Below are positions 10,166-32,645 of a stretch of DNA of 48,941 nt, one piece after another; positions within the stretch are counted from its first letter, which is position 1; each line of letters begins with the position of its first letter. The notes under the pieces are model-generated. The model was not told the DNA's origin. It ran no database searches and saw only the letters and a program-made list of their open reading frames with translations. Source of the DNA: a virus. Its lineage: Duplodnaviria; Heunggongvirae; Uroviricota; Caudoviricetes. The stretch lies in the IMG/VR virus record IMGVR_UViG_2802429253_000004; one strand, 5' to 3'. The position numbers and the translations under genes were made by a program.

Positions 10166-10171
10166 ATGTTT

Positions 10172-10725: not shown

Positions 10726-10767
10726 TTTTTTGAGCGTAGAAATGCACGGCTTTCGCCGTGCTGTGTA

Positions 10768-11424: not shown

Positions 11425-11462
11425 GTCTCATCAATCGTGAATGGTGGGTTATTTATACATTA

Positions 11463-11579: not shown

Positions 11580-11598
11580 TTTAACTGGAGTTCGTTAA

Positions 11599-13568: not shown

Positions 13569-13571
13569 ACA

Positions 13572-13949: not shown

Positions 13950-13990
13950 AAGTGTCATTTTGAGCTGTTTTGGTGATTTGTAGGCACCGG

Positions 13991-14118
13991 GAATATCGGA
14001 AATCTATAAATATATAATTATAGATTTATATAAAAAGTGCTTTACAGGTGGGAAAAAATTTCCTAAGGTTATACCCGAAACCGAGCGATACCCGCCCTGG
14101 TTAAACCGGAGAAATCTG
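13991..14118 (+). promoter_or_regulatory. Promoter/leader cassette, copy B
   Basis: Near-identical to 3956..4072 and 20858..20974; directly downstream of the Q-like gene. Confidence 0.6.
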
Positions 14119-15186: not shown

Positions 15187-15242
15187 CAGTAAGCCTACGG
15201 CGGGATGTCTCCCGCCGTATATAGAATTATATATTTATATAA

Positions 15243-15545
15243 ATGTATAAGGACGCCTCGACAATGAAACGCAAAATTATTAACCCCCAAGATGTGATTA
15301 ATTTCCTGACCGATCACCCATGTTCAAAAGTGGACGTAATCGCGGAGCACATTGGTGTGTCGCAGAACTCTATGCGTTGCAGACTGAGAAGCATGGTTGC
15401 CGAAGGACAGATAACAACCAGGAAAATAAATGGTTGCCTGTACTACTCCGCTAAACCGGAATTGCCATTTGGCATGAATCCTAACTCCATGTTGTTTAAC
15501 ACCTTATTAGCCAAAGTTAAGCCGTTGAGAGGGGCTGTGGCATGA
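15243..15545 (+). CDS. Small winged-helix-like DNA-binding protein
   Basis: Segment DVIAEHIGVSQNSMRCRLRSMVAEGQI is HTH-like; start uncertain (15243 or 15264). Confidence 0.45.
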   Translation: MYKDASTMKRKIINPQDVINFLTDHPCSKVDVIAEHIGVSQNSMRCRLRSMVAEGQITTRKINGCLYYSAKPELPFGMNPNSMLFNTLLAKVKPLRGAVA

Positions 15546-15907
15546 GCATCAAAACCCATACCGGAATAATCATCACCATTGATGGTGAGAAAAAAGTGAA
15601 GTTACGCGAAACGCCGACAACCTGGTGTGTTGGTCCGAAAGAAACATATCGCAAGGAAGATGGGCGCCGTTGTGGGTCGCCACTTTCCAGCCGTCGCCTC
15701 CTTTTGAGCACGATAAAACCTATCGGGCAGGTTGAGCAACCAACGACTCCGGTAACGAAGATTTCAGACAAGAGTCTGGCAAACCTGATCGCCGATGCGG
15801 ACAAGGTGCTGGAGCGAAACACCCCCGTTGCAGATGAGGAATGGTGGCAGGATTTCCGAGCCGCAATGCTAGAGCTTCAGGAACGTCGTCGGGAGGAGTT
15901 GAAGTGA
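15542..15907 (+). CDS. Hypothetical protein
   Basis: 121-aa ORF with overlapping start and stop in the operon. Confidence 0.45.
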   Translation: MSIKTHTGIIITIDGEKKVKLRETPTTWCVGPKETYRKEDGRRCGSPLSSRRLLLSTIKPIGQVEQPTTPVTKISDKSLANLIADADKVLERNTPVADEEWWQDFRAAMLELQERRREELK

Positions 15908-16152
15908 GTGGATCAAATTGTCGAATTAATGGCAATCGAATAGAGCCGTGTGCTGCATTGGCAAAGTCTCTTGAGCACGATGCTGAATGCTCAGTAAGAA
16001 AAGGCTTACTGCTATACAAAATCTGGAATGAGAGTTTAACCCGTGGACCTGATTTGGTGATGTTGCGTTCCGGTGAGTTTTCTAAATCACCTATTCGAGT
16101 CTCATTTTGCCCGTTTTGTGGTGAAAGTCTGAAAACGTGGGAGGGAGAGTGA
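15904..16152 (+). CDS. Small Cys-rich (zinc-ribbon-like) protein
   Basis: GTG start overlapping the upstream stop; Cys pairs CxxxxxxxxC and CPFC. Confidence 0.4.
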   Translation: MSGSNCRINGNRIEPCAALAKSLEHDAECSVRKGLLLYKIWNESLTRGPDLVMLRSGEFSKSPIRVSFCPFCGESLKTWEGE

Positions 16153-16163
16153 AAGAGCGCGGC

Positions 16164-16769
16164 ATGATTTTTAACGATGAGATGGTCCGGGCCATCCTCG
16201 AAGGAAGGAAAACGCAGACTCGCCGACCTGTAAAAAATGTCAGGGCCGATAACTGCCTGGTTATCCGTAAACCGACAAAGAAACGCAATGGTGTCTATAC
16301 CCACGTTATGGATGCACCGGAACATGGTTTATGCCCGTTCGGTAACGTTGGTGATCGCATATGGGTACGTGAGACATTCAACGCTTTTTGGCTGGATGAC
16401 GATGTTATTCAGGAAATCAAAGATGGTGTCTCTCTGGCTTCTGAGCTGTGTGATTACAAGGCTGATTACTCAGATAGTAGCAAACCATCTGAGGGCTGGA
16501 CCCCGTCAATTCTCATGCCGAGATGGGCATCGCGAATTTTGCTGGAAATTACCGACGTGCGTGTGGAGCGGCTGCATGACATGAGCGAGGCAGATGCCAA
16601 AGCGGAAGGCGCATCTCCGGCAACGTACAAGATTACGCCGCCGGAAGCTGTTTATCGTGTTGGTTTTGGTGATATCTGGCGCGGTATTTACGGGCAAGAG
16701 AACTGGCTATCTAACCCGTGGGTATGGGTAATTGAGTTTAAACGTATTCAGGGGGCAACCAGTGAGTAA
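16164..16769 (+). CDS. Phage protein, possibly ASCH/PUA-like
   Basis: N-terminal MIFNDEMVRAILEGRKTQTRRPV is a signature recalled from prophage ASCH-like proteins; unverified. Confidence 0.4.
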   Translation: MIFNDEMVRAILEGRKTQTRRPVKNVRADNCLVIRKPTKKRNGVYTHVMDAPEHGLCPFGNVGDRIWVRETFNAFWLDDDVIQEIKDGVSLASELCDYKADYSDSSKPSEGWTPSILMPRWASRILLEITDVRVERLHDMSEADAKAEGASPATYKITPPEAVYRVGFGDIWRGIYGQENWLSNPWVWVIEFKRIQGATSE

Positions 16770-17019
16770 TTCCGCACGGCTACAGCTTGGTTTTTCACCG
16801 CTATCAAAAACCATCGTGTTGGCCAAAATGCGCGATTTAGGTGACGGAACAAAACGCCGTGTAGGCAATGATCGCGGTCGTGATGTAACCAACGAGGCCG
16901 CACAACTCGTTTGGCATCTTGTCATGGCAGAAGGCGGTGAAATCAATTGGGAGCTGGATGATGGTTCTCGCATGGTGTTAAGGGCAGAAAAGCAGGGGGC
17001 AAACGATGAAAAACCGTAA
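16762..17019 (+). CDS. Hypothetical protein
   Basis: GTG start overlapping the upstream stop; 85 aa. Confidence 0.35.
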   Translation: MSNSARLQLGFSPLSKTIVLAKMRDLGDGTKRRVGNDRGRDVTNEAAQLVWHLVMAEGGEINWELDDGSRMVLRAEKQGANDEKP

Positions 17020-17197
17020 AGCAAAGATGCTTATTTCCCGTGTATACAGACGTTGCTATCCCAGCCAGTGGTTGAGAGTTAGCAATCGCCGTGTGGTGTT
17101 GTACTTATATTCTGGAATTGCCAGAGAGGGAGTCAAAGATAAGCGTAGCGCGGCGCAAAACCGCTGGAAAAACTACTTGCGCACTAAAGGAGAGTGA
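17006..17197 (+). CDS. Hypothetical small basic protein
   Basis: 63-aa ORF; weak support. Confidence 0.25.
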   Translation: MKNRKAKMLISRVYRRCYPSQWLRVSNRRVVLYLYSGIAREGVKDKRSAAQNRWKNYLRTKGE

Positions 17198-17255
17198 GGT
17201 GCCTACACTATTCAGGAAGCTACACAATAAAATTAACCCACATAAGGAAACAGAT

Positions 17256-17642
17256 ATGGCAACTATTACCAGAGAAAGCGCAGAGATTAAATCATTCATC
17301 ACTGGCTTTCTGAGCGATGCGGCGCACGATAAACAATCTTCAAACAGTCTGCTTGCTAATGTGTTTCGTATCGCGCTGGCATCGCTGGAAGCAGAGCCGA
17401 TAGCGTGGGAATGCGGTGAAAACATAATCCTGTTTAACCCTGACACAGTTGAAGCATACGCAAAACGTGCGGAGATATCACCTAAACCACTATATGCCGC
17501 GCCGCCAGTTCCGGAAATGCAGGCTGATGTCGCGCAAGCAATTGAAAATCTCAAGCAGAAGTTAGTGGAATGCAATCGCTATAACTACTGCGCAGATGCA
17601 GTTAAGGGCGTAGAGGATGCCTGCCACGCCGCCATGCTTTAG
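17256..17642 (+). CDS. Hypothetical protein
   Basis: 128 aa from the ATG at 17256 with an upstream AAGGAAA ribosome-binding site. Confidence 0.45.
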   Translation: MATITRESAEIKSFITGFLSDAAHDKQSSNSLLANVFRIALASLEAEPIAWECGENIILFNPDTVEAYAKRAEISPKPLYAAPPVPEMQADVAQAIENLKQKLVECNRYNYCADAVKGVEDACHAAML

Positions 17643-17658
17643 GGGAAAGGGAAGTGAT

Positions 17659-17934
17659 ATGGCTACTTTTACCAAAGAGCAATTGATTGCCCATATTCGT
17701 GAACGTAAGGAAGCGCGCCAGAGAATGTTGGATACGGTAACTATTAACCCCGGATTTCGTGAATATCTTGAAAGAGAGCTTGCTACAGATGAAATTGCAC
17801 TGGCATCCCTGGCATCTGCACCTGTTGCATGGCTAGTTGGAGGGCGTTTGTTCACAACTGAGATAGCTGCGGGGATGTATGCTAGTGAGGTGAGGAAAGC
17901 AGTTAAGCCGCTATTCTTTTCTGCACTACTGTGA
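17659..17934 (+). CDS. Hypothetical protein
   Basis: 91 aa from the ATG at 17659 with a GGGAAAGGGAAG ribosome-binding site. Confidence 0.45.
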   Translation: MATFTKEQLIAHIRERKEARQRMLDTVTINPGFREYLERELATDEIALASLASAPVAWLVGGRLFTTEIAAGMYASEVRKAVKPLFFSALL

Positions 17935-18079
17935 GTATTGTTTTTTTATTGATCGATTGACCACATTTTGAAGGTTTTTTTATGGGAAAACCTTGTTTTA
18001 GGTGGTAACTGGGTGTAGTGTTTCATTTAACGTAGTAAAACTGCGTTAAGCGATTACCGCGTAATTTGTTGCTTTATGA

Positions 18080-18109
18080 AGCCCTGCCTTTTCGGCGGGG
18101 CTTTTTTTT
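18080..18109 (+). terminator. Strong intrinsic terminator immediately upstream of the lysis cassette
   Basis: 9-bp stem AGCCCTGCC/GGCGGGGCT with loop TTTTC, then an 8-nt T-run. Confidence 0.7.
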
Positions 18110-18122
18110 AACGAGGATTTCA

Positions 18123-18518
18123 ATGTCAGCAGAACCAATTTCCGGTACGGCCGTTGCTGCTGGTGGCCTGATGGGTGCCAGCGTTTTTGGTATTGCAACT
18201 GGTATTGATTACGGCGTTGTATTCGGGGCATTTGCTGGCGCTGTTTTCTATGTTGCTACAGCGGTGAATATTAGCCGTCTCAAGCTGATTGGCTATTTCT
18301 TTACATCGTTCATTGTTGGAGTGATTGGAGCGCCGTTAGTTGGCTCATTTCTTGCCAAATGGACCAGCTACAACGATCGACCTCTTGATGCGCTTGGTGC
18401 GGTTATTGTGGCTGCATTGACCATTAAAATCCTCACGTTCGTAAACAGCCAGGATCTCGGTAGCATCTTTGGAATGCTTTCCCGCTTACGTGGAGGGGGT
18501 TCAAATGGTAAGCAGTGA
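18123..18518 (+). CDS. Holin-like membrane protein
   Basis: 131 aa with several hydrophobic helices; first gene of the lysis cassette. Confidence 0.55.
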   Translation: MSAEPISGTAVAAGGLMGASVFGIATGIDYGVVFGAFAGAVFYVATAVNISRLKLIGYFFTSFIVGVIGAPLVGSFLAKWTSYNDRPLDALGAVIVAALTIKILTFVNSQDLGSIFGMLSRLRGGGSNGKQ

Positions 18519-18801
18519 CCCGTCAGCACTGATTAATGCGGTGCTTTGCACAGTAATAGTAATGGCGCTGATGCTTTATCGACGGAAAGACTCCAGGCAT
18601 CGTCCAGTTGTTTCCTTTCTGGCTTATATCTACGTCATTGTATACGCCAATGTTCCCTTCCGTTATGTGTTCGGTCTTTATCAAGAATCCCACTGGCTGG
18701 TGGTTATTGGAAATCTGATTATCTGCATCGTTGTTCTGTATTTCAGGGGCAATCTGGCGCGGATAGTTGACGCATTAGGGTTTAATCATGACCAAAGATG
18801 A
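18505..18801 (+). CDS. Second holin/antiholin-like membrane protein
   Basis: 98 aa with three hydrophobic segments; GGAGGGGG ribosome-binding site; overlaps the upstream gene end and the endolysin start. Confidence 0.5.
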   Translation: MVSSDPSALINAVLCTVIVMALMLYRRKDSRHRPVVSFLAYIYVIVYANVPFRYVFGLYQESHWLVVIGNLIICIVVLYFRGNLARIVDALGFNHDQR

Positions 18802-19330
18802 GATTTTTAACAGCATTCTTGGAAAAGAGGGCGGCTATGTGGATCACCCTGACGACAAGGGAGGCCCAACAAAGTGGGGCATTACTCAGAACACTGCCCG
18901 TGCTCATGGATACCGTGGCGATATGCGCGATTTAACTCGCGAACAGGCTCTGGAAATCCTTGAGGCTGATTACTGGTACGGCCCACGTTTTGACCAGATA
19001 GCAACTCTGTCGCCGGATATTGCCGCAGAACTGTGCGACACGGGCGTCAACATGGGGCCAACCGTGGCGTCGAAAATGCTTCAACGCTGGCTGAATGCGT
19101 TCAATCTGCGCGGGAAGTTGTATCCCGATATGAATGTGGATGGAAGAATCGGCCCACGTACCATTAATGCCCTACGTGCTTATCTTGCATACCGTGGCAA
19201 GGAGGGAGAGCTGGTGATGCTGAGGTCCCTTAACTGTACGCAGGGTTATGGATATCTTGAGCGCACAGAGAATCGTGAGGCCAATGAATCGTTTACCTAT
19301 GGCTGGATGAAAGAGCGAGTGGTGGTATGA
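18788..19330 (+). CDS. Endolysin, GH108-family muramidase with peptidoglycan-binding domain
   Basis: N-terminal GKEGGYVDHPDDKGGPTKWGIT is the GH108 signature; 180 aa. Confidence 0.8.
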   Translation: MTKDEIFNSILGKEGGYVDHPDDKGGPTKWGITQNTARAHGYRGDMRDLTREQALEILEADYWYGPRFDQIATLSPDIAAELCDTGVNMGPTVASKMLQRWLNAFNLRGKLYPDMNVDGRIGPRTINALRAYLAYRGKEGELVMLRSLNCTQGYGYLERTENREANESFTYGWMKERVVV

Positions 19331-19605
19331 CTGGTTTGAAGGCCGTTTTGTCATTTATTGGCACAATTATATTGGTTGCATTCGGCGCGTTTGGTTTTGG
19401 TCGTATGAAGGGGCGAGAAAAGGCCGAAGATGAAGCTGAAAAGCAGCGCATTAATGAGAATGCAGCCGCCGTAAAAGCCACTGCGGAGCGGCGTATAGAA
19501 GTGACAAAAGAGGTGGGCAATGTACAGCAGAGTGTTAACCATATGGCTGATGACGATGTTGATCGCGAGCTGCGGGAGTCGTGGAAGCGTCCCGGTGGTG
19601 GTTGA
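19327..19605 (+). CDS. Spanin inner-membrane subunit (Rz/LysB-like)
   Basis: N-terminal transmembrane helix then charged coiled-coil region; follows the endolysin. Confidence 0.55.
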   Translation: MTGLKAVLSFIGTIILVAFGAFGFGRMKGREKAEDEAEKQRINENAAAVKATAERRIEVTKEVGNVQQSVNHMADDDVDRELRESWKRPGGG

Positions 19606-19729
19606 TACCGCCTGTGATTGGGTAAAGCCCATCTACCTGACTGATCACGACATCGATGTTATGGACCGCCAGACAAAGAAAGATATTCTGGCTCATAACA
19701 GGGCATGGGAAATCAACTGCCAAAAGTAA
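19520..19729 (+). CDS. Spanin outer-membrane lipoprotein subunit (Rz1/LysC-like), nested in an alternate frame
   Basis: Signal peptide with lipobox LIASC; overlaps the 3' end of the i-spanin gene out of frame. Confidence 0.5.
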   Translation: MYSRVLTIWLMTMLIASCGSRGSVPVVVDTACDWVKPIYLTDHDIDVMDRQTKKDILAHNRAWEINCQK

Positions 19730-19890
19730 TATATATTTCTATAAATATATAGTTACAACATTCTATACGCTTTTCTCATGAGCGCACGCATCAACCATGT
19801 TTGTCTGATATGCCGCCGCGCCCAAAAATCCTGAATTTATTGGCTGGGATTTTCGTGCGCGGCGCCACACCAGACAAACAAATCAAATAT

Positions 19891-19966
19891 GGCCCCTTAG
19901 CTCAGTGGTTAGAGCAGGCGACTCATAATCGCACGGTCACTGGTTCAAGTCCGGTAGGGGCCACCA
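19891..19966 (+). tRNA. tRNA with CAU anticodon (tRNA-Met, or tRNA-Ile2 if lysidine-modified)
   Basis: 76-nt cloverleaf: acceptor GGCCCCT/AGGGGCC, D-arm GCTC-AGTGGTTA-GAGC, anticodon loop CTCATAA, T-arm ACTGG-TTCAAGT-CCGGT, encoded CCA. Confidence 0.85.
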
Positions 19967-20274
19967 ATTCACTCTCACACATAAAGATAAGCGCGGTGGA
20001 GTTACTTCTTCGTGCTTATCTTTATGCGTGCCTGGTGCACATTTCGGGAAGCCGTTGGTTAGTGAGTACAGGCAGGGCCTGTTATCCGCAAAGGGGTAAA
20101 AGCTGGAGCGGCACGGAACTGTAGCCGTGTTACCAAAACAGCGTTGTCGGGCGATATCCGGCACACAACAGGCAAGGGCACTAACCAGACTGATTAATGC
20201 CCTTTTCGTTGTGTTTGCTGTAGAGCTGGCCAGCGTTATGACTGCCGGAGATAAGCGCCGGAGACACAACTAAC

Positions 20275-20862
20275 ATGGAGGCAATTGTATTGTTTAATCT
20301 GATTTATGCAGATCCCCCCTGGGAATACAAAGACAAGTGTAAGGATGGGAATCGTGGCGCTGGTTTTAAGTATCCAACGATGAAAGCTGAGGAGATTGCT
20401 CGTATTCCTGTCTGGCAGCTTGCTAATCCTGAATCGTGTTTGTTGGCTATGTGGTGGGTTCCGACTCAGCCAGAAGAAGCGTTGCTGGTGGTGAAAGCAT
20501 GGGGATTCAGGCTTATGACCATGAAGGGCTTCACATGGAACAAATGTGGTAGCCGACAGCCAGACAAGCTGGTGATGGGGATGGGACATATGACTCGTGC
20601 AAACAGTGAAGATTGCTTGTTTGCGGTAAAAGGCAAATTACCGACACGTCTTGATGCGGGGATCATTCAGTCGTTTACATCGCCTCGTCTGGAGCATTCT
20701 CGGAAGCCTGATGTGGTCCGTGACAAACTGGTAAAGCTGTTAGGCGATGTTCCTCGTATTGAGCTGTTTGCTCGCGGTGATTTACCTGCTGGCTGGCATG
20801 GCTGGGGCAACCAGTGCAACGGAGGTATCCAGTTGCATGATGCTCTCTGGCAAGTGTCATAG
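20275..20862 (+). CDS. MT-A70-family N6-adenine DNA methyltransferase
   Basis: DPPW catalytic motif (IYADPPWEY) near the N-terminus; 195 aa; no adjacent restriction endonuclease. Confidence 0.8.
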   Translation: MEAIVLFNLIYADPPWEYKDKCKDGNRGAGFKYPTMKAEEIARIPVWQLANPESCLLAMWWVPTQPEEALLVVKAWGFRLMTMKGFTWNKCGSRQPDKLVMGMGHMTRANSEDCLFAVKGKLPTRLDAGIIQSFTSPRLEHSRKPDVVRDKLVKLLGDVPRIELFARGDLPAGWHGWGNQCNGGIQLHDALWQVS

Positions 20863-20974
20863 AATTATATAATTATAGATTTATATAAAAAGTGCTTTAC
20901 AGGTGGGAAAAATTTTCCTAAGGTTATACCCGAAACCGAGCGATACCCGCCCTGGTTAAACCGGAGATAACCCG
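20858..20974 (+). promoter_or_regulatory. Promoter/leader cassette, copy C
   Basis: Near-identical to copies A and B; ends at the ATG at 20975. Confidence 0.6.
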
Positions 20975-21196
20975 ATGAAAGAACAAGACCGTAAAGTAAT
21001 GCGTATTTCCTTCAAACGTGCGACTGAGCAGCAACGCAAAGAGTTCCTGGCTGATGATGTAGCGGCCGTTTATGACCTCATGAAAGAGGTTGTGGAATCA
21101 GGGAACTACACGGCGGCAAAGATGCTTAAACTGCAATTCTTGCTGGGCGACCTGAAATACAAATCCGAAGTTGTCGCCGGACGACGCGAGCATTAA
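20975..21196 (+). CDS. Hypothetical 73-aa protein driven by cassette copy C
   Basis: ORF directly after the conserved leader; terminator downstream. Confidence 0.45.
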   Translation: MKEQDRKVMRISFKRATEQQRKEFLADDVAAVYDLMKEVVESGNYTAAKMLKLQFLLGDLKYKSEVVAGRREH

Positions 21197-21216
21197 ACCG
21201 TAACGATAACGAACAA

Positions 21217-21246
21217 CGAGCCTCGGCAATTGCCGGGGCTTTTTTA
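21217..21246 (+). terminator. Rho-independent terminator
   Basis: GC-rich hairpin (GCCTCGGCAATTGCCGGGGC) followed by TTTTTT. Confidence 0.6.
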
Positions 21247-21270
21247 CATCCAGACAAAGGAGAACATGGG

Positions 21271-21726
21271 ATGCCTTCGACAAGCACCAAAAAAGAAATG
21301 GCGGTTAGTGATGTGCTTTACGCGCTTTCGACTATATGTGACGGAGCAATGATGAGGATGAAAGTCCTCCATGAAGCATACGGAAAAAGTCACGATGAGG
21401 CAGCTAAAGAATGCCTGAATGAGATTGTGGACTTCATTGATAGCCATCGGTCGCTGATAGCTCTCGATAACCAGCCGCAAGCTGAAGAATGCCAGGAGCG
21501 CGAGTATAAAACGATATACGGGAATAAGTTCTCCTGTCTAAGCGAGTTGGCTGCAAAGGTGGCCGACATTCTGGAGAACAACGGCGGTCGAATGCGTCAG
21601 GTTAGCTATCGGTCTGAATATGAAGCTCTAATCATGTTAGTTGATCAGTTAGTTGATACCGGAGCTTTACAGCTCAACTGCGTAAGGCTATCTGGTCATC
21701 CGATAAAAATGAATGGAAGGATATAA
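21271..21726 (+). CDS. Hypothetical protein
   Basis: 151-aa ORF with a GGAGAA ribosome-binding site. Confidence 0.5.
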   Translation: MPSTSTKKEMAVSDVLYALSTICDGAMMRMKVLHEAYGKSHDEAAKECLNEIVDFIDSHRSLIALDNQPQAEECQEREYKTIYGNKFSCLSELAAKVADILENNGGRMRQVSYRSEYEALIMLVDQLVDTGALQLNCVRLSGHPIKMNGRI

Positions 21727-21728
21727 CC

Positions 21729-21935
21729 GTGGACTTGCCGAGTGATTTGTTCTGGTTTCCGCTTCCAATAAGAGATTTGTTGGTATTTCTGGCTGGCGCT
21801 TACGTCTGGAGAAAAGTGAAAGACACCTCGTTATCTTTGAGGTTTGTCTTAGCTATATCGGTAGGAACCGCGCTGGGTACGGCGTATCTCTTGATATTAC
21901 TGGAGGTATTCATTGAAAAATGGATAGTTTCATGA
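21729..21935 (+). CDS. Small membrane protein
   Basis: 68 aa with two hydrophobic helices. Confidence 0.4.
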   Translation: MDLPSDLFWFPLPIRDLLVFLAGAYVWRKVKDTSLSLRFVLAISVGTALGTAYLLILLEVFIEKWIVS

Positions 21936-22096
21936 ATGGTCTTGGCATTTTTCTGATGGTTGTGGCCGTGTGTTTTTGTATCTCGCTGGTGGTTATTGCT
22001 GGTGTCCTGTGGCGCATCTTAGTGGCGCAGAGAGCTTTTCGGTGTAAGCGGGAGCAATTGCGGTCAGGGTGCGTTTCATTCAAGTCAATGAGATAG
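21932..22096 (+). CDS. Small membrane protein (54 aa), translationally coupled to the upstream gene
   Basis: ATG overlaps the upstream stop (ATGA); hydrophobic N-terminus; shorter than the ORF-track cutoff. Confidence 0.3.
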   Translation: MNGLGIFLMVVAVCFCISLVVIAGVLWRILVAQRAFRCKREQLRSGCVSFKSMR

Positions 22097-22112
22097 ATGT
22101 AGGGTTATTTAT

Positions 22113-22826
22113 ATGATGCATTTAAAAAATATTAGTGCGCCGCTTATTGATCCCCGTGGCAAACATCCAGATGTGCTACCGCTTTTTACTGAAGACGGAA
22201 GAGATTGGTATGAGGAACAGAAGAAATTTCAGCCTCATACTTTAAAGATTGCGTATGACAATAACGGCATTATCCGCAGTGTATCGAAGGATGTATCGTT
22301 GCTTTGCCCGGATGGGATGAGTGTTATTGAGTTACCTGATACTGATGAGTATCGAAAAGTAGATAACACAGGTGATTGGCTCGTCAAAGATGTTCAAATT
22401 GTGAAGCGTGAAGGTACAGAGCACCGAGAAAACTCACTGATATCTATTGGTGCCGAGGCTGTTCCGTTTAAGTTTGAATTATCCCAACTGGTAACAATGC
22501 GTATCAGTGACGAATGGGGAGAAGTTCAAGCCCGTGCTCAGTATGCAAATGGCGAAAACCAGTATCTGATTCACTATCAGGCGGCTGATGGCCGTGCTAC
22601 TACAGAGTGGTTCTGTGAGTCGATGCTGATTGCGATGGAGGATAAACGTCATCCTGGCTGTCCTGTTTTTGCTTGTATTGATCTGCCAGAAGGCGCGGTA
22701 CTTGAAGACGACAAAGAAGAATGGTCGCCTGATGGCGAACTTGTCATTACCGGAATCGTGGATGGTAAGCCGAGATACTCTCGCATTGAGGTAAATAACG
22801 GCCACATCTGTTTGATACCAGAGTAA
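22113..22826 (+). CDS. Tail fiber assembly (Tfa)-like N-terminal domain fused to an uncharacterised C-terminal domain
   Basis: N-terminal ~110 aa align with the Tfa proteins at 46836..47369 and 47398..47925 (MMHLKNI..WYEEQ..FQP.TLK..YD.NG.I); C-terminal ~125 aa unrelated to them. Confidence 0.6.
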   Translation: MMHLKNISAPLIDPRGKHPDVLPLFTEDGRDWYEEQKKFQPHTLKIAYDNNGIIRSVSKDVSLLCPDGMSVIELPDTDEYRKVDNTGDWLVKDVQIVKREGTEHRENSLISIGAEAVPFKFELSQLVTMRISDEWGEVQARAQYANGENQYLIHYQAADGRATTEWFCESMLIAMEDKRHPGCPVFACIDLPEGAVLEDDKEEWSPDGELVITGIVDGKPRYSRIEVNNGHICLIPE

Positions 22827-23060
22827 CGCATTACAGCAGCTCTTGTGCTTATCAGGGGCTGCGATAATGCGCAAACCAAAGCTGCCTCATTAACTCCAGC
22901 TCATTGTGGAGTTAATGCTGGTGGCTTTTTTATTACTGGAAGGTGGGCGACCGCCGTCAGTTGCGACCTGACGACAGTCATTCATACCCACAGGGTGCCG
23001 TGGATACAAACCGAGGCCCACTTGCTTGCACAAGCGAGGGGATTTTAGCGGATAAACGGC

Positions 23061-23684
23061 ATGACAAAACATCTTAATGTGGTTTCTTTACCACTTTCTG
23101 TGTTGATTGGTTATGAAAAGAACGCTCGCACACACTCCGTGGAGCAGGTAGATCAGATTGTTGCCAGCATACAGGAGTACGGATGGACTAATCCGATCCT
23201 GATAGACGAAAACAACGTTGTAATTGCTGGTCATGGTCGAATTGCTGCGGCCACTCAGTTGGGGATGGATGATGTTCCCTGCATTGTTCTGGAAGGGCTA
23301 ACGGAGAATCAGAAGAAGGCATATCGTCTGGCCGACAACCGTATTCCGCTGAATGCTGGTTGGGATGAAGAGTTGTTAAGCGCGGAGCTTGCAGATCTTG
23401 CGGCCGATGATTTTGCTCTGGACTCAATTGGTTTTACTCAGCGCGAACTGGATAACTTATTGAGTGCGGCGGTCTACGATGACACAGAGGGTATGGATAT
23501 CCCATTTGAGAAGGATGAGGCCAAATCAGGCGTAAAAGTTCAGTACCTGTCATTTGGAGGTCATAAAATCCCGGCAACGGATGAGGAAGCGGATCGTTTT
23601 GACTGCGCGGTGTCTCGTTATGTTGATGATAATGGCAGCTATATCGGATTTGTATCCGCATTGCTGGCTGGGGAGGTGTGCTGA
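23061..23684 (+). CDS. ParB N-terminal (ParB/Srx nuclease-like) domain protein
   Basis: Conserved ParB-N segment VIAGHGRIAAATQLGMDDVPCIVL; paralog of 26351..26941. Confidence 0.7.
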   Translation: MTKHLNVVSLPLSVLIGYEKNARTHSVEQVDQIVASIQEYGWTNPILIDENNVVIAGHGRIAAATQLGMDDVPCIVLEGLTENQKKAYRLADNRIPLNAGWDEELLSAELADLAADDFALDSIGFTQRELDNLLSAAVYDDTEGMDIPFEKDEAKSGVKVQYLSFGGHKIPATDEEADRFDCAVSRYVDDNGSYIGFVSALLAGEVC

Positions 23685-25057
23685 TGCTTCACCTGAATTA
23701 CGACATAACGCACCTACGCGGCGCGGAATATAACCCGCGTTTTATCGGTGAGGATGATCTTGCGAGGCTGGCTGAAAGCGTCAGGGAGCTGGGGCTTGTG
23801 AAGCCATTGATAGTGCGCGGCGATTTGCTGGTGGCGGGACACCAAAGGACGAAGGCGCTACGTAAGTTGGGAATAACGCGTGCTGCGGTGTATGTGTTGC
23901 CCTGTGAAACGACGGTATACGACGAAGTTCGGTTTAACCAACTGCATAACGGAACGGATTTTGATAGCGGAGATGAGCGTTGCAGGGTGTCCGGTCTGGA
24001 AGATAAGCATGGTTTTGTTCAGGTATCGGCAAGCCAGATCTCAGGCAATATGCGCGCGAAAATGGCATATGTTCGAAAGAACATAGCGGAACTGGTTATC
24101 AAGTATGGTCCGTGGGGTGGTTGTGTTGCTACTCAGTCTGGCGAGGTTATTCACTGTGCTCAGTATGCATTAGCAGCGAAGATGACGCGCACACCGCTAA
24201 CGGTGTTTGTGATCCCTGATGTTGAGAAGGAAAAATACCAAAGTTATCTGAATAAAACTTATGGTGTATTTGAGTATTCTCATCTGGAGAAAACAACATA
24301 CATCCAGACGTATGCGCAGCTTATGCGGTTGCGTAATGGTGGCAGCCTGAAATCAAACCTGTATGAGTCGTTGATCCTCCCGATCATTGCCAAGACGCCA
24401 AGAGGAATTGATTTTGGTTCGGGGCAGGGAGACTACGCGCGAATGCTCAGGGCAAAGGGGTATAACCTGCATGATCTTGAGCTTTTCCGCCGTAAGGGCG
24501 CAGGAAACACTCTGGATAGGGCTGCAACAAACCGAATGATTGATACGCTGGTGGACGACTTAAAAACGCGAGGGCGTTACGACTACGTGATTTGCGATAG
24601 CGTTTTGAACTCGGTCGATAGTGTCGAGGCTGAATGGTCCGTTCTGACGGTTCTGAAAGGCCTGTGTAAAGCTGGTGGGTCAATATTCTTTTCTGGCCGT
24701 AGCCGTGGAGAGCTGGAGAGTGTGCTTAAACGAACGCAAGCTGCTAGCTCTATAAGTCGGCTTTATTTTATTGACCATAACGGTTTTTCTGCTTTGTACC
24801 GGAAGGGACACTGGTTTTATCAGAAGTTTCATTCTGATGAGGAAGTGAAGCAATTGTGCCGTGAGCATAGCTTCAGAATAAAGCGGTCGGTATTTAACGG
24901 TAAGAGCTGGTATTTGCACGTTATTAACGATGATTCTCTTCGCTGGGAGAGTCTGGAGAAAGCTGTTCGTTTTGAGTTTGAGTTGCCGTTGCCTGGTGGT
25001 TCAACAATCGGACGATCTGATGATGTGTTGGCGGCTTTCCGGCCGTTGATTAAGTAG
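23684..25057 (+). CDS. ParB-N domain fused to a class I SAM-dependent methyltransferase domain
   Basis: N-terminal ParB-like segment (LVAGHQRTKALRKLGI), C-terminal methyltransferase motif I IDFGSGQGDY and post-I acidic motif YVICDSVL; start placed at the ATG at 23684 (ORF open from 23678). Confidence 0.65.
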   Translation: MLHLNYDITHLRGAEYNPRFIGEDDLARLAESVRELGLVKPLIVRGDLLVAGHQRTKALRKLGITRAAVYVLPCETTVYDEVRFNQLHNGTDFDSGDERCRVSGLEDKHGFVQVSASQISGNMRAKMAYVRKNIAELVIKYGPWGGCVATQSGEVIHCAQYALAAKMTRTPLTVFVIPDVEKEKYQSYLNKTYGVFEYSHLEKTTYIQTYAQLMRLRNGGSLKSNLYESLILPIIAKTPRGIDFGSGQGDYARMLRAKGYNLHDLELFRRKGAGNTLDRAATNRMIDTLVDDLKTRGRYDYVICDSVLNSVDSVEAEWSVLTVLKGLCKAGGSIFFSGRSRGELESVLKRTQAASSISRLYFIDHNGFSALYRKGHWFYQKFHSDEEVKQLCREHSFRIKRSVFNGKSWYLHVINDDSLRWESLEKAVRFEFELPLPGGSTIGRSDDVLAAFRPLIK

Positions 25058-25073
25058 TGTGTAGGAGGCGCTG

Positions 25074-25793
25074 GTGGCTGACAGAATTGAGATAAAGATG
25101 GATTTTTCTTCTCAGGATATTCAACGACAACTCCAGCGCCTTGAAGAACGCGAATTGCCATTCGCAATGGCGCTTGCGGCAACCAGAACGGCAAAGGCTT
25201 CTCAGGCTGCGATTAAGAATGAAATTAATCGGGTATTTGACAGGCCCACGCCGTGGATTCAGAACTCTACTTACGTTTTGGCCGCAAAGAAGAGTGATCC
25301 TACAGCCATTGTGTATGCTCGTGAATGGGGAGGAACGCCAGCCCCTGTAACGTTGACTCCGCAAATCGAAGGTGGCCAACGACAGTACAAACGCTCAGAA
25401 GGGGCGCTAAGGGCTGGTGGATATTTGCCTAACGGCTGGCAGCTTGCTCCTGGTCCCGGCGCAAAGCTGGACAAATACGGGAATATTTCGCGGGGGCAAT
25501 TACAGCAGGTCTTATCTGGCCTAAGAGTTCAGCGAGATGCGCATCAAAATCGCCGTCAGGGCAAGCCTACGGAGTTTTTTGTTGTTCGACCTGGTACAAG
25601 TAACCCGCTTCAACCAGGCGTCTGGCAGCGCGTTGGGCGGCGTCCTACGTTGATCCTTACGTTTATCCAGCAACCTAACTATTCGCAGCGTCTTGATTGG
25701 CATGGCGTGGCGCTACGTGCTGGTGAGGATGCGTTTGCTGATGAAGTCACAAAGGCTATTGATGACATTCTTTCTAAGACGTTCTCTCGTTAA
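25074..25793 (+). CDS. Hypothetical phage protein
   Basis: 239-aa ORF; no motif recognised. Confidence 0.5.
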   Translation: MADRIEIKMDFSSQDIQRQLQRLEERELPFAMALAATRTAKASQAAIKNEINRVFDRPTPWIQNSTYVLAAKKSDPTAIVYAREWGGTPAPVTLTPQIEGGQRQYKRSEGALRAGGYLPNGWQLAPGPGAKLDKYGNISRGQLQQVLSGLRVQRDAHQNRRQGKPTEFFVVRPGTSNPLQPGVWQRVGRRPTLILTFIQQPNYSQRLDWHGVALRAGEDAFADEVTKAIDDILSKTFSR

Positions 25794-26350
25794 TCATCGT
25801 GTGGTTGATGGTGTTGTTATGCAGGGTGTATTCACTGTGTGCTGTAGCGTCGCTCGCTGGCTGTCTGTGGGTGAGCACGAGCATCGTTTCATCGTCCGGC
25901 AGAATTGGGTCCTTCTGGCCAAAAGCGTTGGATGCGGGTCATTCGAACCCCGATGTTCGGCTAGCTAAACGTGAAAAAAGTTAGGTTAAAAGTTGCGGTA
26001 AAAGAAATTTACTCATCTCATTGAAAAATATTGGGAAAACGTGATTTTTTGCTGTGCTTGCGATGGTAAAAAGAAAGTAGAAAATTTTCTTTTAGATCAT
26101 CAAGATACGCGCAGATCTTTAACTAATGTAAGGCTGTTTTGATAAAAATCGTTATAAATCATGCAAATACATCCAATCTTTTAACCAAAACACCATATCA
26201 AGATCCTTTTTACTTATAAAAACTTAATAAAATCAGATGATTATGCTGGTTTGTGTGATTTTTTATGAGTAAAAAGATCGTCATTTTTCTCTTTTAGTAT
26301 CAATAAGTTAAACAGTTTTCTTTAACCTGTTGTGTTATGGCGGTTAAAAA

Positions 26351-26941
26351 ATGGCTCTAAAAATCGAATATTTACCAGTCGGTAAGCTGCTCAGATACGC
26401 CAAAAATTCACGGACTCATTCAGATGAGCAAGTTGAACAGTTGGTGAACAGTATCCGTGAGTTCGGTTTCACTAATCCTGTGCTGATCGATGAAAAGAAT
26501 GAACTGATTGCGGGGCATGGGCGGCTTGCAGCAGCCGAAATTCTGGAAATGGATAAAGTTCCAGCGATTCGGTTGAGTAACCTTTCTGAAAAACAGAAGA
26601 AGGCTTACAGGATTGCAGATAACAAGCTGGCCTTAAATGCTGGCTGGGATATGCAGCTTCTGGCCGAAGAAGTCAAAGCGTTAATGGATGATGATTTTGA
26701 TATTGATCTGCTTGGGTTTAATGATGCAGAGCTTGACGAAATGTTAAGCGATGAACAGCCGCAGGAAGAAGACGATAATTCTTCCCCTGTTGTTCAAATT
26801 AAGTACCTGGCTATTGATAAAGAACGTATTCCCGCGACGGATATGGAAATTGCATTGTTGCTGGATGTTTATCGTCAGTACCACGACGCGCATGAAACTC
26901 ATGAGGGATTTGTTCAGTATCTTGCTAATGGTTGCAAGTAA
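26351..26941 (+). CDS. ParB N-terminal domain protein immediately upstream of the terminase genes
   Basis: Paralog of 23061..23684 (LIAGHGRLAAAEILEMDKVPAIRL); acidic C-terminal half. Confidence 0.7.
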   Translation: MALKIEYLPVGKLLRYAKNSRTHSDEQVEQLVNSIREFGFTNPVLIDEKNELIAGHGRLAAAEILEMDKVPAIRLSNLSEKQKKAYRIADNKLALNAGWDMQLLAEEVKALMDDDFDIDLLGFNDAELDEMLSDEQPQEEDDNSSPVVQIKYLAIDKERIPATDMEIALLLDVYRQYHDAHETHEGFVQYLANGCK

Positions 26942-27492
26942 TGGCCATCGTCAGTAAGTCAGAGTTTGCCCGCCGGAAAGGTATTTCTCCGGCAATGGTT
27001 ACGAAGCTCTGTCGTTCCGGTCGCATTCCAGTGCTGAAAAGCGGCAAGCTGGATTTTGATAAAGCTAGTGCGGCTTATGAAGCGAGCCGACAGGTTGGTC
27101 GTGAGGTATCTGCTGAAAATGGAAAAAGAGGGCATGGGATATCTTCGGAACAACCAGAGTTACCCGCTGATGATGCCGGATTAGCTGGTGGTACTTCCGG
27201 TGTTGCGGTGCAATTCAACAAGGCTAAGACCGCAGAAAAAATTTATCAGGCAAAGCTGAAACGCCTTGAATTTGAAGAAAAGGAAGGCTCTCTCATCGCT
27301 AAAGATGCGGTCAGGGATGATGCATTTCTGGCAGCTAATGAATTGCGTAGCCGCTTATTTAGTATTGCTCCAAGAGCAGCTCCCCGTTGTGAAGGCAAAA
27401 CAGCCAGGGAGATCGAACGCATTATTGAAGACGAGATTAATTTTGCGCTTCAGGCGCTCCAGGAATCCCGATTTATTAAGCAGGAAGAATAA
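26932..27492 (+). CDS. Terminase small subunit
   Basis: N-terminal HTH (KSEFARRKGISPAMVTKLCRSG), located directly upstream of the large terminase. Confidence 0.7.
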   Translation: MQVMAIVSKSEFARRKGISPAMVTKLCRSGRIPVLKSGKLDFDKASAAYEASRQVGREVSAENGKRGHGISSEQPELPADDAGLAGGTSGVAVQFNKAKTAEKIYQAKLKRLEFEEKEGSLIAKDAVRDDAFLAANELRSRLFSIAPRAAPRCEGKTAREIERIIEDEINFALQALQESRFIKQEE

Positions 27493-27497
27493 ACCTC

Positions 27498-29354
27498 ATG
27501 GGCGAAACAGTATGGAGCACCGCTTTTTTCCGTGCGCTTCGCCCTAAATCACGGCTAACTGTTTCCGAATGGGCTGATAAGTATCGTCATGTAGCGCCGG
27601 GAACGTCTCCAGAGCCAGGGCCGTGGCGTACAAGCCGAGTGCCATATTTGCGTGAACCAATGGATGTTATTGGTGACGCTGATACAGAAACAGTAGTGAT
27701 GCAATGTAGCTCGCAAATTGGTAAATCCGAATTACAGCTAAATGTTATGGGTTACTTTGCAGATCAGGAGCCATCTCCTCAGTTGATGATTTATCCAACG
27801 GTAGAGGCGGCTGAGGCTTTTTCAAAAGAGCGTATTGATCCGACGTTCAAATATTCCCCTGGTTTGAAACACAAGCTGCATGAAGGGAAAGAGGGGCGCG
27901 GTGCAGCCAAAAAGTCCAGCACGACTATACGTATGAAGCATTACGCTGGTGGATATATAGCACTTGTTGGTGCTAATTCCCCAGCAGGTCTTGCATCCAG
28001 GCCAATTCGAATATTGTTAGCTGATGAGATTGATCGTTACGGTGTGACGCAGGAGGGCGACCCACTAAAACTAGGTATTCAGCGTACTACCAACTTTCAT
28101 AATCGTAAGAAAGTTTTTGTTTCTACTCCTGTTTTGGAGGAAACGAGCAAAATCCACAAGTGGTTTAAGCTCTCCGATCAGCGTTACTACCATGTTCCTT
28201 GCCCATGTTGTGGCACCATGCAGGTGATGAAATGGTCGCAAGTCAGATGGGATAAGAGCGATTCAGGTGAGGCGTTACCGGAAACGGCCAGATATGAGTG
28301 CTGTGAGTGCGGCGGGATTATGCGCGGATCTGGTAAACCAGACGTTGATTGGTTGGCGAAGGGGGTATGGATAGCTGAACATACTGGAGTTAAAGGTATT
28401 GTTGGTTTTCATATTAACAGTCTTTACTCCCCGTGGGTTGCATTGTCAGAGCTGGTTGAAGAATTTACGGAAGCAACCAGAAACCGCGATAAAAATGGAT
28501 TAATGGAGTTTATTAACCTTAAGCTGGGTGAGCCATGGAAAGAGGATGCTAAAGACGATATCGATCCTGAATACTTGTTGCAACGCAGAATAAGGTTTGA
28601 AGAGTTTTTACCAGATGATGTTTTATTGTTAAGTGCTGGTGTTGACGTACAGGACACGTATTTAGTTTGTGAATTGGTCGGTTGGGGAAAAGGTAAGGAG
28701 TCATGGGGGATAGAATATAAAATATTCCCAGGTGATCCCGCACAAGATGTTGTCTGGAAACAACTTGATGAATACTTACTCCGTAGCTGGTCATTCCGTG
28801 ACGGTCGAAAATTACAGATTTCTTCCGTTTGTATTGACTCTGGTGGGCATTTTACGACAGAGGTATATCGCTTTACTAAGCCGAGAGAATCAAGGCGAAT
28901 ATACTCTATCAGGGGGCGTGGTGGGGTAGGTTTACCATTTATAGGAAAGCCAAGTAATAATAACCGTGTGGGTGCTATGTTGTTTAATTTGGGGGTTGAT
29001 GATGGTAAAGGGACCATCATGGCAAGAATTAAACTACATGATCCTGGTCCTGGTTATATGCATTTCCCATTAGATTCTGACAGAGGATATGATACCGAAT
29101 ACTTTAAAGGATTATTATCAGAGAAAAAAATATTTGAATATAAAAATGGGCAGACAAAAGAAAAGTGGGTGAAAGTCTACGAGCGTAACGAGCCTCTTGA
29201 TTGCCGTAACTATGCAACTGCCGCGATGGAAATTCTGAACCCTAATTTTAACTGGCTTGCCGAACAGGAAATGCGAGGTAATGTGTATGTGCAGAACTCG
29301 TCAGGTATACGTAGAAGACGCCGTAGAGTTATAAGTAAAGGCGTAACCATATAG
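27498..29354 (+). CDS. Terminase large subunit, lambda gpA-like
   Basis: 618 aa; N-terminal region resembles lambda gpA (WADKYRHVAPGTSPEPGPWRTSRVPYLREPMD). Confidence 0.85.
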   Translation: MGETVWSTAFFRALRPKSRLTVSEWADKYRHVAPGTSPEPGPWRTSRVPYLREPMDVIGDADTETVVMQCSSQIGKSELQLNVMGYFADQEPSPQLMIYPTVEAAEAFSKERIDPTFKYSPGLKHKLHEGKEGRGAAKKSSTTIRMKHYAGGYIALVGANSPAGLASRPIRILLADEIDRYGVTQEGDPLKLGIQRTTNFHNRKKVFVSTPVLEETSKIHKWFKLSDQRYYHVPCPCCGTMQVMKWSQVRWDKSDSGEALPETARYECCECGGIMRGSGKPDVDWLAKGVWIAEHTGVKGIVGFHINSLYSPWVALSELVEEFTEATRNRDKNGLMEFINLKLGEPWKEDAKDDIDPEYLLQRRIRFEEFLPDDVLLLSAGVDVQDTYLVCELVGWGKGKESWGIEYKIFPGDPAQDVVWKQLDEYLLRSWSFRDGRKLQISSVCIDSGGHFTTEVYRFTKPRESRRIYSIRGRGGVGLPFIGKPSNNNRVGAMLFNLGVDDGKGTIMARIKLHDPGPGYMHFPLDSDRGYDTEYFKGLLSEKKIFEYKNGQTKEKWVKVYERNEPLDCRNYATAAMEILNPNFNWLAEQEMRGNVYVQNSSGIRRRRRRVISKGVTI

Positions 29355-29365
29355 AGGAAATATAA

Positions 29366-29605
29366 ATGAACAATGAAGCATTTTCTCTGACTGAAGCCAG
29401 AGAGATGTTATCTGTCTGGCGGGAAGCATATCGCGCTATTGCTATTGGCGGTCAGTCATATAAATTTGGTACGCGGCAGTTAACTCGTGCGGATTTATCA
29501 GAAGTCAGAAAAGAGATGGATTACTGGCGTAATGAAGTAGAAAGATTATCAGCAGGTATACGCCGAGGCCCACGAATTAAACGAGTGGTGATAAGAGATT
29601 TATGA
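29366..29605 (+). CDS. Head-tail joining protein, lambda gpW-like
   Basis: 79-aa gene between terminase and portal, the gpW position. Confidence 0.6.
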   Translation: MNNEAFSLTEAREMLSVWREAYRAIAIGGQSYKFGTRQLTRADLSEVRKEMDYWRNEVERLSAGIRRGPRIKRVVIRDL

Positions 29606-32233: not shown

Positions 32234-32242
32234 GGTGGGTTT

Positions 32243-32626: not shown

Positions 32627-32645
32627 TATAAAGAGGTAATATTTT

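Follow-up and report, generated by a model that had tools for sequence, protein, structure and literature searches.

The whole stretch of DNA considered here (the 48.9-kb window, positions 1..48941, IMG/VR record IMGVR_UViG_2802429253_000004) is a complete circular phage-plasmid of Escherichia coli, and ahead of its terminase genes it carries a conserved two-gene cassette. The first gene of the cassette encodes a small stand-alone protein with a ParB/Srx N domain (ParB-N), here called ParB1, and the second encodes a ParB-N domain fused to a class I methyltransferase dependent on S-adenosylmethionine (SAM). A second stand-alone ParB-N protein, ParB3, is the product of a conserved backbone gene that heads the packaging operon (coordinates of all features are given in Table 1). 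What might these proteins do? On a judgment that we consider evenly poised, the ParB-N proteins would assist phage DNA-modification enzymes that are expressed late, serving them as accessory subunits that depend on nucleotide, and ParB1 would be the partner of the fusion.

Whether a phage escapes restriction and other defenses is decided by the modifications of its DNA, and new enzymes can be drawn from them as well. Some phage DNA-modifying enzymes have recently been shown to need small ParB-like proteins. Because the element described here lives in E. coli, a widespread cassette of ParB plus ParB-methyltransferase becomes readily testable, and ParB3, which stands before the packaging genes with no cassette of its own, lets a role in modification be distinguished from one in packaging. 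If the fusion modifies DNA, it would bring a further methyltransferase class into the DNA-modification repertoire. If it does not, then the labels "DNA methyltransferase," "partition protein," and "nuclease" now attached to hundreds of prophage genes would need correcting.

A conserved cassette ahead of phage terminases

Gene order around the fusion was compared in a sample of 80 IMG/VR loci together with prophage loci, of which 75 had enough upstream DNA to be assessed and 67 were scored for a downstream terminase. For de-replication, the fusions were clustered at 70% identity, which gave 30 lineages that are 36 to 98% identical to the window protein. A stand-alone ParB1-like gene (about 200 amino acids [aa]) lies upstream of the fusion on the same strand at 68 of the 75 loci, directly abutting it at 61, and an upstream ParB is likewise present in 23 of 28 de-replicated lineages. 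In the window itself, the ParB1 stop codon overlaps the fusion ATG at position 23684 (TGATG). ParB1 and the fusion thus form one conserved two-gene cassette. Downstream, a large terminase gene follows the fusion at a distance of 0.55 to 2.6 kb (median, 915 nucleotides [nt]) at 57 of 67 loci, or 22 of 26 lineages. The terminases belong to three families, namely, Terminase_6 (39 loci), GpA (15 loci), and TerL_ATPase (3 loci). Chromosomal prophages, such as those of 9-Mb Bradyrhizobium chromosomes, carry the cassette too, so that it is not confined to phages living as plasmids.

How widespread is the fusion? More than 787 homologues were found, about 455 to 470 aa long and carrying PF02195 plus PF13489. 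At an E value of 1e-30 or less, the family makes up 239 clusters at 50% identity among 1.84 billion representatives, and it is coherent: family members among the matches listed are about 460 aa long and align end to end. In sequenced phage isolates it is rare, with seven records, four of which are this phage group.

The ParB-N/methyltransferase fusion

The fusion is built from an N-terminal ParB-N domain (aa 1 to 90, with the motifs YNPR and AGHQR), a middle unit (aa 110 to 190), the methyltransferase domain (aa ~235 to 415), and a set of C-terminal helices. It matches phrog_5475 over positions 1 to 457 of 458 (4.8e-261), and its AlphaFold2 (AF2) model (pLDDT, 92.8; pTM, 0.89) contains a Rossmann methyltransferase domain. 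The ParB-N domain is only 28 to 33% identical to ParB1 and ParB3. For the methyltransferase domain, the Pfam matches are limited to the generic families Methyltransf_23 (PF13489; 31.3 bits against a cut-off of 27, aa 233 to 342) and Methyltransf_12. Residues that are invariant in 33 diverse homologues include YNPR and AGHQR (ParB boxes I and II), FNQxHNGTD, and SAM motif I, DFGxG (D243-F-G-x-G247), along with E266, D305-x-V-x-NSVD, R339, and R373-x-G-x-WF-x-Q-xx-H. With DFGxG, E266, and D305 all invariant, the fusion looks catalytically competent.

On what substrate would such an enzyme act? An earlier note on this DNA took the gene for an orphan DNA methyltransferase fused to a ParB-like domain. 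The fusion of ParB-N to a class I methyltransferase is borne out, whereas the words "orphan DNA methyltransferase" are not justified. Neither the (D/N/S)PP(Y/F/W) motif (motif IV of the amino-methyltransferases) nor the PCQ/ENV motifs were found among the invariant columns of the 33 homologues, and PF01555, the N6_N4 methyltransferase family, gave no match in the fusion. The PADLOC and phrog_498 matches span only aa 8 to 74. In two structural searches, the nearest neighbors of the methyltransferase domain were toxoflavin N-methyltransferase, Trm9, METTL6, UbiG, and DhpI, that is, small-molecule, tRNA, and carboxyl methyltransferases, and DNA methyltransferases were absent from the top 50 to 60 matches. 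The domain is not recognizable as a DNA methyltransferase.

The middle region of the fusion has strands and helices of the same order and lengths as those of the ParB-N unit, and the invariant His157 occupies the place equivalent to that of His53 in box II. HHalign of aa 1 to 98 against aa 99 to 200 gave a probability of 0.4%, and no internal duplication is claimed. Since this amounts to no sequence similarity, a second ParB-like unit is indicated solely by the order of strands and helices in the model, on which aa 110 to 190 may be a degenerate second ParB/Srx unit.

Two stand-alone ParB-N proteins

The ParB-N assignments made in the earlier note hold on domain search. ParB3 scores 33.6 bits against Pfam ParB_N, above the cut-off of 26.3, while ParB1 (24.8) and the fusion N terminus (24.4) fall just below it and are backed by PHROG and PDB matches. 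Both stand-alone proteins match phrog_620 (ParB1, 2.9e-74; ParB3, 1.1e-74), and the PDB sequence matches of ParB1 and of the fusion N terminus are Spo0J, ParB, and Noc. The two were also correctly described as paralogous, sharing 48% identity from end to end (E = 5e-61). Each is 46 to 52% identical to homologues from unrelated environmental phages, however, so ParB1 and ParB3, no nearer to each other than to these, are old paralogues or separate acquisitions rather than products of a recent duplication. The diverse homologues were obtained by querying with a distant ParB from locus L004; a search with ParB3 returned only 98 to 100% identical proteins, which were of no use for modeling. The note had further remarked that three ParB-N domains in one element are unusual. 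ParB3-like matches were found at 464 places in 444 of 50,697 phage records, from which it follows that two or more copies per phage genome are uncommon.

In its AF2 model (pLDDT, 84), ParB1 has a nucleotide-binding domain (aa 1 to 95), three short helices (aa 103 to 138), a disordered linker (aa 142 to 157), and then a small C-terminal domain. ParB3 shares this layout and type of C-terminal domain. The best Foldseek matches to the model are Noc, Myxococcus xanthus ParB, PadC, KorB, and sulfiredoxin. Box II reads AGHGR in both stand-alone proteins and AGHQR in the fusion. When ParB1 is aligned to Spo0J and Noc, the ParB hydrolysis positions are seen to be substituted (Q to N in box I and E to H in box II), while the key arginine of box II is kept. 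No helix-turn-helix (HTH) DNA-binding domain was detected by Pfam in ParB1 or ParB3, nor does the ParB1 model contain a full HTH, and an N-terminal ParA-binding peptide of the LG[KR]GL type was not found in either sequence. Against TIGR00180, which has a cut-off of 58.45, the three ParB-N proteins score 31.0, 40.1, and 16.4 bits, with ParB1 and ParB3 at 31 to 40.

Where else does this kind of ParB-N domain occur? In phage genomes, the ParB3-like matches mostly lie in genes annotated as DNA methylases. The N-terminal ~150 aa of ParB-N/N6_N4 DNA methyltransferase fusions, represented by phrog_498 (1e-50 to 7e-52) and by PADLOC PDLC03229 (6e-38 to 1e-40), are matched by both ParB1 and ParB3. The idea that the C-terminal domain of the stand-alone ParB by itself specifies the partner enzyme was dropped because the "type C" ParB of locus L087 also precedes a phrog_5475 member.

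A swappable slot at the head of the packaging operon

The gene series that follows the probable cos region opens with ParB3. The Yersinia phage records that match the window do so up to position ~25948 and end there, and ParB3 lies 313 to 415 nt from their left end. Since these ends fall within the noncoding gap between p239 and ParB3, the gap probably holds cos, the packaged genome ends. The GC content is 0.385 in 26001-27000, and a search for parS-like repeats in 25700..26400 gave only weak AT-rich direct and inverted repeats. ParB3 overlaps the start of the small terminase gene TerS (TAATG), in agreement with the earlier note, which had placed it directly upstream of the small terminase and suggested a part in packaging or regulation. 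What was overlooked is that the position is a conserved slot, filled in sister phages by a 7-deazaguanine cassette.

In distant phages with GpA terminases, the gene order is a p239-like gene (phrog_1924), ParB, a variable segment, TerS (phrog_57), and TerL. With the genes that precede ParB in L089 and L090, p239 shares 29 to 30% identity (E = 3e-12 and 4e-17), and the L089 gene matches phrog_1924 at 2.7e-46. ParB3 is by this order a conserved backbone gene. The position of p239, a "minor tail protein," is odd for a structural gene; in L087, a tail-completion (gpZ-like) gene fills that place.

It is the variable segment that differs among these phages. L090 has no genes there, and neither does the window after ParB3. 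In L087 it holds a divergent phrog_5475 member and a Methyltransf_11 protein. In L089, L091, and L092, a homologue of ParB1/ParB3 is followed directly by genes for a DpdA-like transglycosylase (phrog_887, 8.5e-33; 56% identity between loci) and for preQ0 synthesis, and then by TerS and a GpA TerL. The preQ0 genes are FolE, QueD, and QueE, with QueC in L091 and L092 only and none detected in L089. The DpdA plus Que/FolE segment in these three loci is a 7-deazaguanine DNA-modification cassette.

Proposed function and alternative explanations

How might the ParB1-fusion cassette work? Our proposal draws on synteny and on published precedents. ParB/Srx N-domain proteins would bind nucleotide (CTP or ATP) and recruit or activate DNA-modifying enzymes, acting on replicated phage DNA late in infection, just ahead of packaging. 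ParB1 would physically partner the fusion, which would draw on SAM to attach a methyl group, or one related to it, to the phage DNA or to a target bound to that DNA, and the mark would protect the phage DNA in the next host. We favor this explanation because the cassette occupies the slot of the DpdA/preQ0 modification genes in relatives, because ParB1 and ParB3 resemble the ParB-N domain of DNA methyltransferase fusions, and because the architecture and substitutions of ParB1 match those of the ParBs required by 5mYOX enzymes (described below). ParB1 adjoins the fusion, with its predicted methyltransferase activity, and other members of the ParB family adjoin DpdA-like genes; ParB3 has no adjacent enzyme gene. 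One further speculation, to which we lend only slight credence, is that the cassette would install a chemically new modification by SAM-dependent transfer of a methyl or other alkyl group, made by a class I methyltransferase fold of the small-molecule type, at a position other than N6 of adenine, N4 of cytosine, or C5 of cytosine. A hetero-complex of nucleotide-gated ParB clamps, formed by ParB1 and the fusion's ParB-N domain, would deliver it along the DNA before packaging, and phrog_620 would be the DNA-loading adaptor of the swappable preterminase slot.

Several points weigh against a role in DNA modification. Members of phrog_5475 have no experimental tie to it, and the fold of the fusion looks like that of a small-molecule or tRNA enzyme. 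ParB1 and ParB3 are under the NCBIfam cut-off for every ParB family and are not members of the DpdB family. A ParB directly before TerS without any cassette, as in L090 and as with ParB3, fits packaging or regulation at least as well. The cassette could lie beside terminase genes simply because the late operon tolerates insertions at that point, and late expression itself is read only from the co-directional gene array and terminator-like hairpins. Between them, the small-molecule- or tRNA-like fold and the cassette-free ParB before TerS keep alive the alternatives of packaging and of a non-DNA substrate.

Could ParB3, and perhaps ParB1, instead be a component or regulator of the packaging operon, with the modification genes merely inserted alongside? 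We think this rather unlikely, whether it took the form of a nucleotide-gated clamp near cos that aids TerS on concatemers or of long-range control of late transcription in the manner of KorB or BisD. What speaks for it is that ParB is the constant member of the backbone of p239-like gene, ParB, TerS, and GpA TerL, present with or without a cassette, and that ParB3 overlaps the TerS start. In addition, a ParB-like gene is the first at the left genome end in many unrelated phages (149-583 in Vibrio phage X29, 169-561 in RcKvothe, and 162-560 in vB_VpaM phages), and noncanonical ParB-like regulators such as BisD, Noc, and PadC are present in the literature. However, proteins without a complete HTH leave site-specific loading unexplained, no parS-like repeat is prominent in the gap ahead of ParB3, and ties to three terminase families argue against a specific terminase partnership. 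Moreover, no ParB-like factor is known to be required by lambda-type GpA/Nu1 terminases. It seems similarly doubtful to us that the fusion methylates something other than DNA (a nucleotide or other small molecule, RNA such as tRNA, or protein), with the ParB/Srx domains as binding modules and a metabolic or antidefense role in place of DNA marking. The closest folds and the purely generic Pfam matches do point that way, and the pTM of 0.89 suggests a rigid multidomain enzyme. The ParB/Srx fold is also found in enzymes with non-DNA substrates (sulfiredoxin and SerK), and ParB-CTPase/SAM-methyltransferase fusions bound ATP in vitro (PMC12704722). Against this stand the nature of the obligatory neighbor, which is the ParB type fused to bona fide DNA methyltransferases, the use of the same slot by DpdA/Que DNA-modification genes in sister phages, and a lack of accompanying small-molecule pathway genes.

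The names under which these proteins appear in databases suggest two other functions. Many are called "ParB-like nuclease," and DNase or NTPase activities have been described for several ParB/Srx domains, for example, those of Osa and the Bacillus cereus ParB-methylase (PMC5512222). The ParB-N domains would then be nonspecific nicking nucleases or NTPases that degrade host or competitor DNA or deplete nucleotides. We see little chance of this, as no dedicated nuclease motif or domain was found beyond the ParB-N fold, a nuclease acting by itself would not account for the conserved association with an enzyme gene and with modification cassettes, and a nonspecific one made late, from a gene next to those for packaging, would put the DNA of the phage itself at risk. 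Other records name the proteins "chromosome (plasmid) partitioning protein," and the element is a plasmid prophage of the low-copy type that encodes a ParA. That the ParB-N proteins are the centromere-binding partners of this ParA is nonetheless very unlikely, and we reject it. The ParA gene is 13 kb distant, on the other strand, and is followed by an 82-aa gene of its own, ParB1 and ParB3 score far under the TIGR00180 cut-off and lack both an HTH and a ParA-binding peptide, and these genes are also found in prophages integrated into chromosomes and in environmental viral contigs with no ParA nearby. The element thus having its own ParA and small partner gene, the ParB-like proteins are not its partition system. 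A function in DNA modification remains the explanation that we prefer.

A solitary MT-A70 methyltransferase

The earlier note grouped the ParB-N genes with a DNA methyltransferase of another kind, and all four of the open reading frames (ORFs) that it described are present on the plus strand. The remaining one encodes, as the note proposed, a predicted MT-A70 (beta-class) N6-adenine methyltransferase. It matches Pfam PF05063 over the full profile (positions 1-172 of 172; 82.3 bits against a cut-off of 23.9; 5.1e-23), phrog_359 "DNA methyltransferase" (5.7e-102), and PADLOC MTase_II (1.5e-68). The catalytic DPPW stands at aa 13 to 16 within YADPPWEY (aa 11 to 18) and aligns with the DPPW of MT-A70 chains in the PDB, where the sequence matches are MT-A70 and METTL3 chains. 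It was also called an orphan; none of the 70 features that RefSeq annotates on a 98%-identical plasmid is a restriction endonuclease, nor was one found in Pfam, PHROG, and PADLOC scans of the neighbors, with small unannotated ORFs still possible sources. Homologues occur in 515 phage records, all of them single-domain proteins annotated as adenine methylases. Solitary MT-A70s carried by more than 110 Stx2a-converting phages (72 to 73% identity) and by epsilon15-like podophages (up to 77%) are like it in being single-domain proteins of ~190 aa with DPPW and no restriction partner. There is no notable difference between these and the window gene, and no characterized close homologue was found. 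By its sequence, the gene encodes an ordinary solitary phage N6-adenine DNA methyltransferase, already known in kind. A link to M.EcoGII was considered and rejected; M.EcoGII is a 349-aa beta-class N6_N4 enzyme and is neither an MT-A70 protein nor fused to ParB. Overall, the orphan MT-A70, the domains, and the paralogy set out in the note stand, while it passed over the ParB1-fusion cassette and the separate ParA system.

The phage-plasmid and its gene content

The 7.5-kb region around the cassette is 97 to 98% identical to circular plasmids of ~48 to 49 kb, which occur in 76 of 5,426 complete E. coli genomes, a frequency of ~1.4%. Of 229 matching places in E. coli, 224 are on plasmids of this size. 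The window also matches the Yersinia phages vB_YpM_39/41/44 and Escherichia phage vB_EcoM-613R2. As for ParB3, 849 contigs carry the identical protein and at least 1,000 carry a 99%-identical variant. The paper on the pseudolysogenic Yersinia phage HQ103, which may or may not be the same phage, does not mention ParB, methyltransferase, or terminase.

Gene content was taken from the RefSeq annotation of the 98%-identical plasmid mentioned above, together with our own scans. Beyond what Table 1 lists, the element has lysis genes, an invertase gene, and genes for a contractile tail of the P2 type; its terminase is of the lambda gpA type. The C-terminal half of the 82-aa protein downstream of ParA resembles a ribbon-helix-helix centromere-binding (ParG-like) domain as read from sequence only, and the protein is probably the real partition adaptor. 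The serine invertase (Resolvase plus HTH_7) adjoins two minus-strand genes for a tail fiber and its assembly, a pair that stands downstream of plus-strand tail fiber genes; the arrangement (window positions 84..638 and 47398..48816) looks like an invertible host range switch of the Gin/Cin type. A tRNA with the anticodon CAT (19891..19966) lies between the lysis genes and MT-A70. ARAGORN calls it tRNA-Met while its RefSeq homologue is tRNA-Ile, and given this disagreement it may be a lysidine-dependent Ile2 tRNA. Distant from the tail genes is a chimeric ORF (22113..22826) whose N-terminal ~100 aa match tail fiber assembly proteins (Caudo_TAP, phrog_136) and whose C-terminal part matches phrog_1935. 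Its RefSeq counterpart is a truncated pseudogene plus a separate ORF.

How are the late genes expressed? Strong intrinsic-terminator-like hairpins with stems of 10 to 11 bp and T runs are present at 18078..18104, just 5' of the holin genes, and at 21218..21241, after a 73-aa ORF. Because both are inside the long co-directional array, they suggest that late transcription depends on antitermination. A promoter scan found 6 sigma-70-like sites versus 14.6 in shuffled sequence, none of them ahead of ParB1 or ParB3, and thus lends no support to separate promoters for these genes.

Table 1. Features of the phage-plasmid and of the DpdA-carrying relatives (coordinates refer to the window unless a locus is named)
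Feature	Coordinates	Strand	Basis
RepA, IncFII type	820..1800		RefSeq annotation and own scans
RelE/ParE-HTH toxin-antitoxin pair	about 3257..3909		
ORF6N/Rha protein	6095..7237	-	
Candidate partition locus (ParA plus 82-aa gene)	9205..10165	-	
82-aa protein downstream of ParA	9205..9453	-	ORF list; no Pfam match
ParA, small ATPase	9497..10165	-	ParA/CbiA/MipZ Pfam matches; RefSeq "ParA family protein"
CI-like repressor	10768..11424	-	
MT-A70 (beta-class) N6-adenine DNA methyltransferase, predicted, 195 aa	20275..20862	+	Pfam PF05063, phrog_359, PADLOC
ParB1, ParB/Srx N-domain protein, 207 aa	23061..23684	+	phrog_620, PDB sequence matches, AF2 model
Fusion of ParB-N and class I SAM-dependent methyltransferase, 457 aa	23684..25057	+	phrog_5475, Methyltransf_23, AF2 model
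p239, phrog_1924 "minor tail protein," last gene ahead of probable cos	25074..25793	+	phrog_1924 (2.5e-97)
AT-rich noncoding gap, 558 nt, probable cos	25794..26350	.	
ParB3, second stand-alone ParB/Srx N-domain protein, 196 aa	26351..26941	+	Pfam ParB_N, phrog_620
TerS, small terminase subunit	26941..27492	+	phrog_57 (7.4e-42); start from RefSeq
TerL, large terminase subunit, lambda gpA type	27498..29354	+	Pfam GpA_ATPase (7.1e-76), GpA_nuclease (1.1e-84)
DpdA/preQ0 cassette, L089	5001..9041		
DpdA/preQ0 cassette, L091	153..4863		
DpdA/preQ0 cassette, L092	170..4695		

Relation to known systems

Two of the components discussed here, ParB-N/Methyltransf_23 fusions and ParB-assisted phage DNA modification, are known already, both from the literature of 2025. 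What we did not find described is the obligatory ParB partner of the fusion family, its position before terminases of several families, or the same ParB family heading a swappable slot that holds a DpdA/preQ0 cassette, the fusion, or nothing. A survey (PMC12704722, PNAS 2025) reports that ParB-CTPase/Methyltransf_23 fusions are enriched in phages and prophages and that their function is unknown, "perhaps anti-defense." The fusions of the survey have the same architecture as the window fusion (PF02195 plus PF13489), and we found in it no description of the stand-alone ParB neighbor, of the preterminase position, or of the slot shared with DpdA cassettes. A related type of protein is the ParB-N/N6_N4 methyltransferase fusion (phrog_498, PDLC03229), an orphan methyltransferase of mobile elements, whose ParB-N is up to ~60% identical to the N-terminal ~135 to 150 aa of ParB1 and ParB3. 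The latter differ in having no methyltransferase domain, and the window fusion differs from the phrog_498 type in belonging to another methyltransferase family (Methyltransf_23-like, with no DPPY-type motif) and in its more divergent ParB-N.

What of the ParB proteins that serve in partition? Canonical ParB, Noc, and KorB share with ParB1 and ParB3 the N-terminal fold, box I with N-x-R, and box II with GxxR. Unlike canonical partition ParBs, ParB1 and ParB3 have no complete HTH, no ParA-binding peptide, no parA neighbor, and no TIGR00180-level score. A further precedent for the accessory role proposed here comes from CmoX, as 1,660 CmoX contigs have ParBc-domain neighbors (PMC12783734).

Closer in kind are two systems in which a ParB fold works with DNA modification. 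One is bacterial Dpd, a 7-deazaguanine system in which DpdA works together with DpdB, an ATPase of the ParB fold (PMC10164549); homologues of ParB1/ParB3 directly precede the DpdA-like gene in L089, L091, and L092. DpdB is larger, however, and has the motif DGQQR and an SspE-like helical C-terminal domain, in contrast to AGHGR and another, small C-terminal domain in ParB1 and ParB3. ParB1 and ParB3 gave no match to the DpdB models, and the window itself is without DpdA or Que genes. The second system is that of the 5mYOX thymine dioxygenases, for whose activity in vivo phage ParB-like proteins are required (O'Toole et al., 10.1101/2025.08.14.668559). 5mYOX176 alone yields ~0.9% 5hmU, versus ~35% with ParB176 (10.1101/2025.08.14.668559). 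By their published description, on which alone the comparison is made, the 5mYOX ParBs are like ParB1 in being small and stand-alone, in lacking an HTH, in joining a nucleotide-binding domain to a small C-terminal domain through an unstructured linker, and in carrying Q-to-N and E-to-H/D substitutions at the hydrolysis positions. They are encoded beside a DNA-acting enzyme, as ParB1 would be if the fusion acts on DNA, and, like ParB1, often near a terminase; some of the published clusters have two ParBs, as the window does. It is in the partner that the systems differ: for the 5mYOX ParBs it is an Fe/2OG dioxygenase, and in the window it is a class I SAM methyltransferase that itself bears a ParB-N domain.

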